Source of the DNA: Candidatus Saccharimonadota bacterium
Lineage (GTDB): Bacteria > Patescibacteriota > Saccharimonadia > Saccharimonadales > UBA4665
Length of the DNA stretch: 32,000 bases
Direction: 5' to 3'
Assembly: GCA_016699955.1 (NCBI GenBank)
Contig: CP064993.1
Span: 960,001 to 992,000 of the forward strand
The notes beneath the pieces were generated by a model, which saw only the letters and a list, made by a program, of their open reading frames with translations, was not told where the DNA came from and did no database searches. A program made the translations under genes and the position numbers. Shown in pieces: positions 5,320 through 30,465 of the stretch (its first letter is position 1; the number at the start of each line of letters is the position of its first letter).

Positions 5320-6630
5320 CAATTCTGCCGTATTAGCTCATTTAACAATCTTGCTGAAACTAGTTTCTAAAGCTTTAAGTTTCCGTTGAATCTCACGTTG
5401 TAATTTCGCGGGATTCAAGCTGTCATATTGTGATTGTAGCATGGCTTTCTGCTTGTCGCTGACGTTAGGGTGACTCATCAGCCGTTGGTAGGGTGTTTGA
5501 GCTGGGTAATAGCGTTTGGTTTTCTTGCCCGTAGCCTGGTCTTTAACGGTTTCTTTAACTTTCATAGTTGGTTGGAAAAAATTAAGGTACTGCCTCCACT
5601 CGTTTTGGTAGAGGTCATTTAGGCTTTCTAGCTGTTCATTTGTGTCCATACGTTGGTAACCCACTAGTTGCCGTATGGCAGTCCAGTTCTTTTGTTCGAC
5701 ATGGGCTTGGTCGTTCTTTCTGTATGGCCTAGAACGGGTAAAGGTTAATCGATTATTCTTAGCATAGCGCGCCATGTGCCAATTGATGAATTCGCTGCCG
5801 TTGTCCGAATCAATACCCAGTAGTTTAAACGGCAAACGCTTACGGGCACTGTCAAGGCCAGTTACAGACGCTCGTTCACCCTTGCCCATAATAGCCACCT
5901 GCTCACTCCAGCTAGTAGCTACATCCGTTAAATTTAGACTGTAGATAAACGTGCCAGCTAATGTGTCGCCACAGTGGGCTACGGTGTCTGTTTCGCACCA
6001 ACCCGGTGTTGTTTCGTCCCAGCGACCATAACGCACACTAATCTGCCGTTTTAGCAGACTACCTGGTTTGGTTGTACCGCCAATTCGGATGATGCTGCGT
6101 CGCTTCTCGCGGGAGACAATGCGTTTAACAGTAGCTAGACTAATTTGCCTAAGCTGATCATCGATTTCGGGTCTTACGGCCAGTTCGCCGCACGCTACTA
6201 GCTTATCTAAAAGCTCTGGCATGAATGGCTGCAAGCGTTCAGCGCAGATGTTACTAGTGGCATGCCAGAGTAGCAAAACAACTTGCTTAGTTTCGACCGA
6301 ATAGCGAGCAGTCCGCGGCTTACGGATAATCGCCTTGGGCGGCGGGGAGCGCAGCAAGACGCTAGCATAGGTTCGGTGATAGCCAGTAATGTCTACCACG
6401 TCACTAAGTAATTTGCTGCGTTCTTTTTTCTGGTTCTTCTTGAGACGTTTGTATTTCTTTCGCATTACGCCAAGATATTCCTGGCGGGATAATCTGCTCA
6501 TTTGATAATTCTTTCCGTTTGTACTCATAGTCCTGACAGCGTAGGGCTAGAGGTAGCTTTTTGGAAACATTATTAATGAGCTAACGAATACTATTTCGGA
6601 AAGATTTTAGATGAGCTAAGTCGTTCTGCT
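5320..6630 (-). mobile_element. insertion sequence (about 1.3 kb) carrying one DDE/rve transposase; family uncertain
   Basis: Imperfect terminal inverted repeats centred on ttagctcat (5333-5341) and atgagctaa (6611-6619), with flanking matches. An extra internal copy of atgagctaa sits at 6576-6584. A single intact transposase ORF lies between the repeats. The ends are only good to about 20 bp, and no target-site duplication could be defined. Confidence 0.6.
5338..6528 (-). CDS. DDE-type transposase (retroviral-integrase-like rve core, N-terminal HTH region)
   Basis: 396 aa. Catalytic triad candidates are D in ETDTVAHCG, D in GIDSDNGSEF, and E in AHVEQKN 36 residues later. The basic N-terminus fits DNA binding. 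The RPYRKNDxAHVEQKNW motif reminds me of ISNCY/IS1202-like elements, unverified. Confidence 0.85.
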   Translation of the reverse strand: MSTNGKNYQMSRLSRQEYLGVMRKKYKRLKKNQKKERSKLLSDVVDITGYHRTYASVLLRSPPPKAIIRKPRTARYSVETKQVVLLLWHATSNICAERLQPFMPELLDKLVACGELAVRPEIDDQLRQISLATVKRIVSREKRRSIIRIGGTTKPGSLLKRQISVRYGRWDETTPGWCETDTVAHCGDTLAGTFIYSLNLTDVATSWSEQVAIMGKGERASVTGLDSARKRLPFKLLGIDSDNGSEFINWHMARYAKNNRLTFTRSRPYRKNDQAHVEQKNWTAIRQLVGYQRMDTNEQLESLNDLYQNEWRQYLNFFQPTMKVKETVKDQATGKKTKRYYPAQTPYQRLMSHPNVSDKQKAMLQSQYDSLNPAKLQREIQRKLKALETSFSKIVK

Positions 6631-21409: not shown

Positions 21410-21492
21410 GTACGGATCATCTCCTTTCAGGACGGTGACACACTGCTTAGTTTTATAATGGTATTGAACTTTCGAAGGATTGATCCGTACAT
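21408..21492 (-). promoter_or_regulatory. long-range 12-bp stem covering the rpmJ SD-to-start spacer and the AU of its AUG
   Basis: Perfect inverted repeat atgtacggatca (21408-21419) / tgatccgtacat (21481-21492), separated by 61 nt. Confidence 0.4.
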
Positions 21493-21554
21493 CGGTCTAA
21501 TAAATTAGGCCAGTCCGGATGAACCAATCCCTAGAAAGTTCAACAGTAGCAAAA

Positions 21555-23361: not shown

Positions 23362-23607
23362 TTTGCTCTTCCTCTTTATCTGCTAAATCTGCTACCAGTA
23401 TACATAGTCCTGCCCCAGAATAAAATAAGAAGCGTTCATTTTAAGCGCTTCCTATCGATAGTCATTGAATTTACCCTCTCGATCCACTGTTAGCGCCTAT
23501 AGGCGTTAGGCGAGCCTGAGCGAAGCCTACAGGGGCGCAGCTTTAGAGCTAAGGCGTTAATGCCTAAGTTTAGGTAACGAACGTGGGGACTAAGCTAAAG
23601 TAGAATA

Positions 23608-25721: not shown

Positions 25722-25814
25722 TGTGATTTAGAGTTAAGAACTATTCAAGTGATGAGTTAAGAGTATTTAGTGCTCTTTTCTCGTTTCTCTTGTTCTTAGC
25801 TCTCCTTTCCTTGT

Positions 25815-26216
25815 TTAATAAACTTGACAGATTAATTCGCCGCCAAGCCCTACAGCTTTGGCTTCCTCACCGGTCATTAAGCCTTTTGAGGTCGAAATGA
25901 TGAGTATACCGCGGCCACGTTTGACGCGAGGCATTTCACGAGCGTTAGTGTAGGCACGTCGACCGGGCTTGCTCAGACGCTTGATCTCAGTGATGCGCGC
26001 GTTTTCACCGGCAAGGTTTATCGTGATGTGCAGCTGTTTGCCAACACTGAGGTCGGTAACGCTCACGTCTTGCAGAAAACCATTATTCTTTAAAGAAATG
26101 GCGACGTTTTCCTTTATTTTGCTGTGTGGCAGGCTAACTTCATTTTTGCCAACTGCTACTGCGTTTCGTACGCGTGTCAGCATGTCTGAAATTGGATCGG
26201 TTGTAGTGGTGCTCAT
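25815..26216 (-). CDS. rpsH: 30S ribosomal protein S8
   Basis: 133 aa. DPISDMLTRVRNA. Confidence 0.95.
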   Translation of the reverse strand: MSTTTTDPISDMLTRVRNAVAVGKNEVSLPHSKIKENVAISLKNNGFLQDVSVTDLSVGKQLHITINLAGENARITEIKRLSKPGRRAYTNAREMPRVKRGRGILIISTSKGLMTGEEAKAVGLGGELICQVY

Positions 26217-26299
26217 ACAGTGCCTCCTTTCTCATTTGGCAGAGAGCATTGGGTATATGACAGAGATGTAACAGGTTTCATTTGAAGCGAAGTACCCAT
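26213..26299 (-). CDS. candidate 28-codon spacer-filling micro-ORF ([28 protein letters not shown])
   Basis: Its ATG shares the A of the rpsN stop (TAATG, 26301-26297). The frame stays open across the whole 82-nt spacer. Its TGA overlaps the rpsH ATG (ATGA, 26216-26213). Confidence 0.35.
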   Translation of the reverse strand: MGTSLQMKPVTSLSYTQCSLPNEKGGTV

Positions 26300-26568
26300 T
26301 ACCAGCTCGCTTTCGTTACGCCAGGGATTTCACCCTTGCTGGCATGTTCACGGAAAGACAAACGGCTCAGGCCAAACTGGCGCATGAAGGCACGCGGCCT
26401 GCCGGTTTCTATACAACGGTTCTTTTTTCGGGTAGGTGAAGAGTTGCGTGGCAGCTTTGCCAAACCTTCGTAATCACCAAGTTCTTTCAGCTCTTTACGC
26501 TTTACAGCGTACTGCTCGATCATCTTAATGCGCTTTTTGTCGCGCGCTAGATTTGATTTTCTGGCCAT
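26299..26568 (-). CDS. rpsN: 30S ribosomal protein S14 (long, non-zinc form)
   Basis: 89 aa from [13 protein letters not shown], with SD AAAGGAAC. The track ORF adds 12 in-frame codons from an upstream ATG (26604), which I consider less likely. Confidence 0.9.
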
Positions 26569-26674
26569 TATGCAGTTCCTTTCAGCCGCTGAGTCATGCA
26601 GCATGAGTCATAAATCTTGACAGTCACTTTGCGACCGGTAGCTAGTTCTTGTCTCTTGTTTCTTGCCTGTTGTC

Positions 26675-27277
26675 TCATTTTGAATTCTCCTTTTCAAACG
26701 GCATACCAAATTTCTGTAGTAGCGCTTTGCTATGGGCTTTATCTTTGCACTTCACCACAAAAACCGCTTGCATGCCGTGTGTCGTGGTTGTTTCTTCAAA
26801 AGTTAGTTCAGGGAAAACGCTTTGGTCAGTTAAGCCCAGGCTGAAGTTTCCTTGCTTGTCAAATGCCTTGTTGCTTACACCATGAAAGTCGCGCAGACGC
26901 GGCAACACAATGTTAATGAGCCTATCCATAAACTCGTACATCCGCTCGCCGCGAAGTGTCAGTTTGAGGCCAATCATATTGCCTTCGCGCAGTTTAAACC
27001 CAGCGATTGAGTTTTTTGCAACTGTTTCCACTGGTTCTTGTCCGGTGACTTTGCGAAGCGTATTCTTGGCAGCCTCAATTGTTTTTTTGTCATCCTTGGC
27101 TTTACCAAGTCCGACATTGACCACAATTTTTTCAAGTTTAGGAACTTGGTGAGAGTTCACTAGCCCAAGTTCTTTCTGAAGCTCGGCGGCAAATTTCGTG
27201 TTATAGTCATTTTTTAAACGTGCAACGTATTTTGCAGCAGTTTTTGCCGGTTTTTTCGTTATTGTTGCTTCTGCCAT
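26675..27277 (-). CDS. rplE: 50S ribosomal protein L5
   Basis: 200 aa. PKLEKIVVNVGLG and the L5 core. Confidence 0.95.
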   Translation of the reverse strand: MAEATITKKPAKTAAKYVARLKNDYNTKFAAELQKELGLVNSHQVPKLEKIVVNVGLGKAKDDKKTIEAAKNTLRKVTGQEPVETVAKNSIAGFKLREGNMIGLKLTLRGERMYEFMDRLINIVLPRLRDFHGVSNKAFDKQGNFSLGLTDQSVFPELTFEETTTTHGMQAVFVVKCKDKAHSKALLQKFGMPFEKENSK

Positions 27278-28052: not shown

Positions 28053-28370
28053 CTATTTTTCCTCGCCTTTCACACTTGCAGGCTTGTCAGTCACGCCAGG
28101 TACTTGAACGGCAGTTTCGATGTGCTTGACTTCAGCCTTTTCGACAATTGACTGCAAGGTAAAATGTTTGCGACGGCTAATTGGTCGTGTCTCGACCACT
28201 ACAACCGTATCTCCCACTTGTGCTTCGTTGTTTTCATCGTGTGCCATAAATTTCTTGCTTGTTGTGTACTGCTTCCGGTACAAGGGGTGAGTTTTTTTCT
28301 CACGTACCGTAATAACGATTGTTTTGTCGGTTTTGTTGCTGGAGACAACACCGGTAATTGACTTTGGCAT
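28053..28370 (-). CDS. rpsQ: 30S ribosomal protein S17
   Basis: 105 aa. [17 protein letters not shown]...[11 protein letters not shown]. Confidence 0.95.
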
Positions 28371-28471
28371 TATTTGCTACCTCCGGCTTTTGTAGTAGGT
28401 ACTACGTAGTAATTAGTAAGGGATTTTGGAAGCCCAACCATGCTACATGCTACCTGTTGCATGCTAATCAT
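28370..28471 (-). CDS. candidate 33-codon spacer-filling micro-ORF (MISMQQVACSMVGLPKSLTNYYVVPTTKAGGSK)
   Basis: Its ATG directly abuts the rpmC TAA (TAAATG), with AAGGAGG 8 nt upstream. The frame fills the 101-nt spacer. Its TAA shares an A with the rpsQ ATG (TAATG). Confidence 0.4.
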   Translation of the reverse strand: MISMQQVACSMVGLPKSLTNYYVVPTTKAGGSK

Positions 28472-30127: not shown

Positions 30128-30400
30128 TTATTTCCCCTTCGCTAACTTACCGCCGTGGTTGCGGAACTTACGAGTGGGGCTGAACTCGCCCAGCTTGTGG
30201 CCGACCATGTTTTCGGTAACGAAAACCGGTACATGAACTTTGCCGTTGTGCACCGCAAAAGTTTTGCCCACAAAATCTGGCGCAATTGTGCAAGCACGAG
30301 CCCATGTTTTGATAATTGTGCGATCCTCGGGGCCAAGCGCAGCGACTTTTTTCGCCAGCTTCGGATCAATAAACGGCCCTTTCTTAAGTGAACGACTCAT
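30128..30400 (-). CDS. rpsS: 30S ribosomal protein S19
   Basis: 90 aa. [12 protein letters not shown]...HNGK. Confidence 0.95.
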
Positions 30401-30465
30401 TAATTAACTCCTCTTGCTGCTATTATTCCGCCTATGGCACCCCATACAATTCCTGTTGCCATCAT
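30400..30465 (-). CDS. candidate 21-codon spacer-filling hydrophobic micro-ORF ([21 protein letters not shown])
   Basis: Its ATG is 2 nt after the rplB TAA, with AGAGGAAA upstream. The frame fills the 67-nt spacer. Its TAA shares an A with the rpsS ATG (TAATG). Confidence 0.4.

Follow-up and report, generated by a model that had tools for sequence, protein, structure and literature searches.

The minus strand of the window (the whole stretch of 32,000 nucleotides that was analysed) carries an S10/spc/alpha ribosomal-protein cluster running from rplW to rpsD (31717–19858; 47% G+C). In this cluster, the spacer between rpsN and rpsH is 82 nt long and is filled by a relay ORF of 87 nt, i.e. 29 codons including the stop codon (Table 1). 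The ATG of this ORF (26299–26297) has one A in common with the rpsN stop codon TAA (26301–26299), giving TAATG, and its stop codon TGA (26215–26213) sits within an ATGA whose ATG (26216–26214) is the start of rpsH. Across the 82-nt spacer, the relay frame is the sole stop-free one among the six frames. An earlier sequence-only reading had given these coordinates, the spacer length, the TAATG and ATGA overlaps and the position of the SD, and all of them proved exact to the base on the minus strand. It had also counted three bridged cases among the five spacers that exceed 60 nt; for the five between rplB and rplO, this number has to be corrected to four, since the 67-nt rplB-rpsS spacer also has a bridging ORF.

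Table 1. Features of the rpsN-rpsH region and of the other spacers with inserts in the window
Feature	Position	Strand	Remarks
rpsH-rplF spacer, heptad-periodic hairpin of the same class, without ORF	25722..25814	-	Internal contrast
rpsH (S8, 133 aa), downstream gene	25815..26216	-	Start overlaps relay ORF stop
Truncated family-1 repeat copy	26212..26294	-	nhmmer E=4.5e-16; profile positions 92-174 (3' arm and SD-bearing right end)
Relay ORF, 28 codons and stop	26213..26299	-	Only stop-free frame of six; kept in 12/12 long-spacer relatives
SD for rpsH, AAAGGAGG, element-borne	26223..26230	-	Encoded by relay ORF K-G-G codons; 6 nt 5' of ATG
rpsN (S14, 89 aa), upstream gene	26299..26568	-	Stop overlaps relay ORF start
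Second relay ORF, 36 codons, rplE-rpsN spacer	26568..26678	-	ATGA start, TAATG end; nhmmer E=7e-30
Third relay ORF, 33 codons, rpmC-rpsQ spacer	28370..28471	-	TAAATG start, TAATG end
Fourth bridging ORF, 21 codons, rplB-rpsS spacer (67 nt)	30400..30465	-	Begins 2 nt past rplB stop; TAATG end on rpsS ATG

The rplE-rpsN spacer consists of a full-length element of a repeat family (family 3), in which GAGACAA heptads, a central hairpin and CATGACT heptads are followed by CTGAAAGGA-N-TAATG. The copy in the rpmC-rpsQ spacer differs from its orthologue in the relative L012 by 1 nt, located outside the ORF, and the 21-codon rplB-rpsS ORF of the window showed no repeat-family membership in an all-against-all comparison of the inserts. 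Two long spacers of the window, rplO-secY (23362–23607, 246 nt) and infA-rpmJ (21410–21554, 145 nt), have no bridging ORF.

Taken alone, the open frame in the 82-nt spacer of the window is not statistically remarkable, being compatible with chance (P about 0.13–0.25): dinucleotide shuffles were bridged in 13% of cases when the whole spacer was shuffled and in 25% when six bases were kept at each end. Its significance comes from the ensemble of relatives and junctions only, and not from the window spacer. A search with S8 yielded 80 loci, all from Saccharibacteria/Saccharimonadales MAGs (as are all genomes compared here) with S8 identities of 92–63%; 17 operon genes were placed at each locus by tblastn, and their starts and stops were then refined. 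In most relatives with 75–88% S8 identity, the rpsN-rpsH junction reads TAATATG, with a spacer of 1 nt, and in more distant relatives the spacer is 6–20 nt long and contains an SD; as judged from the relatives, the ancestral junction is TAATATG. Twelve genomes, including that of the window, have an insert of 82–166 nt at this junction, belonging to at least four different insert families, and in all 12 an ORF connects the stop of rpsN with the start of rpsH. Two of these long spacers have a length of 2 mod 3, which is compensated by a TAAATG start in one and by a stop codon directly before the ATG in the other. The sequence-only reading had proposed that the bridging ORF serves translational coupling and had named a frame broken in relatives that retain the spacer as the observation that would speak against it; retention of the frame in 12/12 long-spacer genomes argues for such a role.

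When 16 junctions were compared in 81 loci, neighbouring genes proved to be ancestrally spaced by -8 to +4 nt at nearly every junction. Inserts measuring 60–500 nt occur sporadically, at differing junctions in differing genomes, and were found at 84 of 372 junctions in the close clade (up to 9 per genome) and at 19 of 691 in the distant group. With rpsH-rplF left out, 89 of the 103 inserts at 15 junctions are bridged (strict criterion, 60–260 nt), compared with 2.9 expected from whole-spacer shuffles and 13.3 from shuffles of the interior only; these counts are not phylogenetically independent, although the inserts fall into more than 60 sequence clusters. The spacer lengths outside rpsH-rplF are distributed 81:28:12 over the residues 1, 0 and 2 modulo 3, and in almost every insert exactly one of the six frames is free of stops; this open frame always runs in the sense direction and connects the upstream stop with the downstream start. 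Upon inspection, 13 of the 14 unbridged exceptions turned out to be scoring artefacts: 5 have their stop codon 5–9 nt beyond the downstream ATG, 2 have a start slightly farther from the upstream stop, 1 is a bridged insert masked by a mis-called gene end, 4 are mis-called gene boundaries and not inserts, and 1 is an unremarkable variant with an overlapped start. The sole exception without a start codon beside the upstream stop is a single truncated copy.

Two regions of the relatives are worth noting. 1) In L109 (591–3699), mini-ORFs of 53, 37, 33, 127, 30 and 110 aa abut both neighbours at nearly every junction from rplC to rpsS, a case of extreme colonisation. 2) At rplB-rpsS, a fast-evolving gene of 90–165 aa is present in L001, L009, L013, L024-26, L031, L032, L036, L039, L041, L045, L055, L064 and L065; it starts 2–6 nt past the rplB stop, its stop overlaps the rpsS ATG, and an N-terminal M-x-F-x-N-F-P-P-like motif is common to several copies.

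All-against-all comparison grouped the inserts into multi-copy families, with 17 clusters spanning different junctions, and empty sites are present in close relatives (insertion polymorphism). The rpsN-rpsH insert of the window was assigned to family 1, the largest family, whose 15 members in the operon table are located at rpsN-rpsH, rpsC-rplP, rplV-rpsC, rplB-rpsS and rpsS-rplV, and family 3, represented in the window by the rplE-rpsN insert, was also found at rpsE-rplO, rplW-rplB, rpsS-rplV and rplR-rpsE. Profile searches identified extra copies at rplW-rplB, rpsK-rpsD, rpsM-rpsK and rpmJ-rpsM, all of them sense-oriented and bridged, and the minus-strand matches to the family-1 and family-3 profiles are weaker palindrome echoes of sense copies. 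The only possible inverted copy lies in L002 (1263–1380, rplB-rpsS, 124 nt), where family 3 matches with E=5e-7 in reverse versus 1e-4 in forward orientation; this insert still has a 38-aa sense ORF with an SD of its own 12 nt past the rplB stop and an ATGA end. When metagenomes were scanned at the DNA level for the right end of family 1, CTGCTAAATCAGAAAGRAG, there were 19 matches, all due to chance and none accompanied by the element or by ribosomal-protein genes.

A full-length family-1 element is an imperfect palindrome of about 150–170 nt with a periodicity of 7 nt. Seven invariant C-G pairs are spaced 7 nt apart on the mirrored arms (about 64 mirrored positions), in which helices of 4–5 bp alternate with small internal loops, and several pairs covary between subfamilies (among them GC/AT at columns 63/113 and TA/AT at 56/120). 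When folded, full-length copies form long imperfect hairpins, but since A·C mismatches exceed G·U on the sense strand (105 vs 40), it is the antisense strand that folds better. In the window copy, an in-frame deletion has removed about 81 nt (27 codons) from the 5' arm and with it the hairpin, no significant fold being left in this copy (z=-0.6); an independent in-frame deletion, of 66 nt (22 codons), was found in the family-1 copy of L010.

In family 3, the central hairpin (window 26620–26640; also L002, L004 and L013) has a 3-nt loop, with GCGAAGC-type mini-hairpins included, and the stems of different copies differ by fully compensatory changes (CAGCTGC/GCAGCTG, CAGTCGC/GCGACTG, CAACAAC/GTTGTTG and CAGCAGC/GCTGCTG). 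Comparison of the copies suggests a role for this hairpin, as DNA or as RNA, that may lie in mobility. One family has a right end, AAGGAGGCCAAGTAATG, that equals the native 3' end of rpmC (at rpmC-rpsQ in L013, L026 and L043) and was also found at rpsE-rplO of L014; this element may have captured, or arisen from, the terminal SD-stop-start module of a gene. The sole lead to a parent autonomous IS for the repeats is an ORF of 396 aa in the window (5338–6528, minus strand), a possible IS transposase with a weak match to the integrase core (rve; E=1.9e-5, below the Pfam cutoff).

Family 1 is also represented outside the ribosomal-protein operons. An alignment of its peptides matched ten clusters in the protein database; each of them is annotated as hypothetical or unnamed, and none contains a Pfam domain. 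Three copies are located on one 962-kb contig, each with an ORF overlapping both neighbours: 1) between genes for a 209-aa protein and a Lactamase_B_3 protein, 2) between the two halves (N- and C-terminal) of a split transketolase, and 3) between an ABC ATPase and its ABC-2 permease. An extra bridging ORF of 47 codons lies between GAPDH and RpiB, and other family-1 peptide matches came from rplC-rplD, from rpsC-rplP and, in a second genome, again from the transketolase junction. On one contig, two copies separated by about 30 kb occupy opposite DNA strands, each being in sense orientation relative to its own genes. Element orientation therefore tracks transcription and not replication, and insertion specific to a replication strand is unlikely to explain the sense-only pattern.

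At empty sites, the SD of the downstream gene sits in the last codons of the upstream gene, and that at rpsN-rpsH is weak (-4.8 kcal/mol); this arrangement hints at a normal dependence of rpsH on termination-reinitiation. At filled rpsN-rpsH sites, the relay ORF starts at the ancestral site with an SD of equal strength (-4.4 vs the ancestral -4.8 kcal/mol). The SD that the element supplies for the downstream gene is -6 kcal/mol or stronger in 95% of the copies and is followed by TAATG or ATGA, and that of rpsH is -9.2 kcal/mol at filled versus -4.8 at empty sites. The accessibility of the ribosome-binding site (unpaired) is 0.45 at filled versus 0.49 at empty overlap-type junctions (P=0.03) and 0.61 at rpsH-rplF; masking of this site by the element was rejected as the reason for the ORF, the signal being weak.

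The rpsH-rplF junction is a natural control. Its ancestral state is an SD-driven spacer of 10–35 nt with no stop/start overlap, and the heptad hairpins of the same class found there have stops in every frame in 20 of 24 inserts. This contrast supports coupling as the selected property, and the higher accessibility of the ribosome-binding site at rpsH-rplF (0.61) adds modest support. Two layouts were observed at this junction. In the window, L004, L011, L012 and L016, an SD-like AAGGAAAGGAG directly follows the rpsH stop, on the 5' side of the hairpin, and the rplF ATG has no adjacent SD; folding would place AAGGAAAGGAG about 11–14 nt from this ATG, so that the two parts may form a split ribosome-binding site. 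In L001-3, L007-9, L017 and L018, the hairpin comes first and GAAAGGAAAG stands ahead of the ATG.

That genes joined by ATGA or TAATG overlaps can be coupled through termination-reinitiation is established (PMC6728339, PMC12548453). The rpsN-rpsH spacer is a degenerate copy of the family-1 repeat, which in a clade of Saccharibacteria sits at the stop/start overlaps of coupled genes, and we consider it probable, at roughly three chances in four, that its relay ORF preserves coupling across a selfish insertion. A ribosome ending rpsN at the UAA would re-initiate on the overlapping AUG, the same weak-SD site that rpsH uses in insert-free genomes, read the 28-codon relay ORF through the insert and terminate at the UGA within AUGA, where it would be handed to the rpsH AUG, aided by the strong element-borne SD in the last codons of the ORF. 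The element would take over the ancestral re-initiation site and return the ribosome at its right end; the peptide would be a by-product, and selection would maintain an uninterrupted frame with its start and stop abutting the neighbours, so that S8 synthesis stays coupled to S14 synthesis. From evolution alone we infer that the relay ORF is most likely translated, and a start by termination-reinitiation and a benefit from stoichiometric coupling are likewise most likely. Several points stand against this model: the window copy is so short that chance could account for its open frame, it has no hairpin, so that nothing there needs melting, with the strong SD of the element rpsH could start independently, making the relay dispensable, and the ribosome-binding site is only slightly less accessible at filled than at empty junctions.

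This SD on the element, with which re-initiation is not strictly required, would also fit if translation of the insert were selected for a purpose other than coupling, namely to block Rho-type polarity or RNase attack on bare intercistronic RNA, or to keep the hairpin melted and so free of a processing site or roadblock. The long imperfect hairpins of full-length copies are in keeping with such a purpose, and the excess of A·C mismatches looks as if the structure of the sense RNA had been weakened. However, the near-universal, nucleotide-exact TAATG/ATGA abutment is then left without explanation, hairpins of the same class survive untranslated at the uncoupled rpsH-rplF junction, and the truncated window copy has kept its frame without a hairpin. 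Overall, we regard protection or melting as rather unlikely to be what is selected.

The open frames might also reflect the mode of insertion together with youth, if elements inserted at start codons and brought an ATG and a stop with them; the window ORF would then be an undecayed relic. An ATG stands at both element ends (a possible target duplication of 3–5 bp), the family consensus includes the right end, and the window copy alone is, as noted, compatible with chance. Yet copies differ by 19–40% and all stay open, whereas neutral simulation from the real copies (substitutions only, 30% pairwise divergence) kept the frame open in only about 32% of lineages, so that 10/10 open full-length copies have a probability of about 1e-5 under neutrality; young, undecayed inserts were ruled out on this ground. 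The other two sense frames are open in 1/13 and 0/13 copies. The family-1 alignment has 162 phase-consistent columns and no inconsistent one, every indel being a multiple of three, and the deletions of 81 and 66 nt described above are independent and both in frame. Where orthologous copies differ in length by 1 base, the difference lies outside the ORF, between stop and start, or is offset by a shifted stop. The majority-rule consensus has an in-frame TAG, which was found in no real copy. Insertion mode and youth are thus very unlikely to account for the open frames.

That the relay ORF encodes a functional small protein is a highly improbable reading. Gene callers annotate family members as hypothetical proteins, and small proteins are easily missed. 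Mean pairwise diversity at the three codon positions is, however, 0.27/0.28/0.23 in six families, as opposed to 0.10/0.06/0.53 and 0.09/0.05/0.45 for the rpsH and rpsN genes, respectively, of these genomes. Since diversity is flat across the codon positions, conservation applies to the frame and not to the peptide; in the comparison of the six families with rpsH, there is no third-position excess that would indicate purifying selection on the amino acids, and a functional micropeptide was ruled out on this basis. In addition, half of the family peptide is gone from the window copy, the same junction is filled by unrelated families, and the peptides are low-complexity translations of heptad DNA repeats with no Pfam domain.

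In E. coli, S8 regulates the spc operon by binding to its mRNA. An RNA that regulates in cis (for instance an S8 autoregulatory site), within a meaningless frame, or a chance ORF in an ordinary spacer, for which the shuffle probability at this single locus would leave room, appears scarcely credible, being already contradicted by the comparative data: the ensemble statistics speak against chance, the window copy has no significant structure, and the same family occurs at non-ribosomal junctions. An Rfam scan of the window at gathering thresholds found tRNAs only, and permissive Rfam scans of the spacer region and of one full-length copy gave nothing credible. With no Rfam match, and with the family also present in metabolic operons, the element does not behave as a conserved structured RNA specific to ribosomal-protein operons.

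Several known systems resemble these elements in part, repeats of mycobacterial operons being the closest precedent. The interspersed repetitive units of mycobacteria (MIRUs; Supply et al. 1997), as summarized in PMC12548453, are dispersed intercistronic repeats in operons, co-oriented with the genes, and contain a short ORF coupled at its two ends to the stop and start codons of the flanking genes, which is read there as permitting insertion with minimal effect downstream. The Saccharibacteria elements are likewise short, dispersed, apparently mobile and co-oriented between operon genes, with an ORF coupled at both ends. As in MIRUs, they lie in sense orientation between co-transcribed genes, their ORF ends overlap or abut the flanking genes, and they are dispersed in multiple copies with polymorphism. 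MIRUs reportedly are tandem arrays of direct units of 46–101 bp without dyad symmetry, whereas each Saccharibacteria site holds one palindrome of 100–170 nt with a 7-nt periodicity, the elements form many unrelated families, and the S10/spc/alpha cluster is heavily colonised. The hosts belong to different phyla (Saccharibacteria vs Mycobacterium), and because the host is Saccharibacteria, common descent with MIRUs is unlikely.

The Rickettsia palindromic elements (RPEs; Ogata et al. 2000), according to the account in PMC10969869, are regarded as selfish DNA of about 100–150 bp that is tolerated in expressed sequence through its open frame; they insert within genes, join the host protein and have a conserved peptide in each family. 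The Saccharibacteria elements are also palindromic and made compatible with translation by an open frame, but every copy is intergenic, with its own start and stop codons, and the peptide is unconstrained. Bacterial MITEs and other intergenic palindromes of operons, such as Correia, ERIC and Chunjie (PMC10969869), are similarly non-autonomous, multi-copy, palindromic, co-transcribed with their flanks and polymorphic in presence or absence. The whole Saccharibacteria element being an imperfect palindrome, it also has terminal inverted repeats; ATG, AATG or TAATG stands at both of its ends, where a target-site duplication is not separable from functional need. Classic MITEs, in contrast, insert either way, have defined terminal inverted repeats and target-site duplications and a parent IS, and need no translation, whereas all Saccharibacteria copies but possibly one are in sense orientation and carry a relay ORF. 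A further parallel is with engineered bicistronic or translational-coupling cassettes, in which a short leader ORF with an embedded SD has a stop overlapping the start of the target (PMC12548453). Every element has such a right end, with an SD in the last codons followed by TAATG or ATGA, but the Saccharibacteria elements are natural, mobile and coupled at both ends. No account of such elements in Saccharibacteria, Patescibacteria or CPR turned up in a literature search.

The individual locus in the window is modest, but the phenomenon is systematic and, in the accessible literature, undescribed. It is about an even bet that these inserts form an undescribed superfamily of Saccharibacteria, consisting of heptad-periodic hairpin elements specialised in stop/start overlaps, with a relay ORF selected solely for its translatability. 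If so, up to nine junctions of the universally conserved ribosomal-protein cluster would be occupied in one genome, and the inserts would amount to a natural replicated experiment indicating that termination-reinitiation coupling is strongly selected in reduced genomes; they may also point to a new mobility mechanism that targets start codons. For annotation, "hypothetical proteins" of 30–55 aa of this kind in Saccharibacteria MAGs should not count as genes. As coupling cassettes of natural origin that are two-sided, the elements have a possible use in the design of synthetic operons, and their insertion polymorphism is a potential strain marker, as is MIRU-VNTR in mycobacteria. More than 100 insertions in more than 60 clusters indicate that, at stop/start overlaps, repeats persist only if the ribosome can read right through them, whereas repeats of this kind survive without translation where the downstream gene is initiated at a site of its own. 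These data provide direct comparative evidence on the strength of selection for coupling in ribosomal-protein and other operons of ultra-small CPR bacteria.
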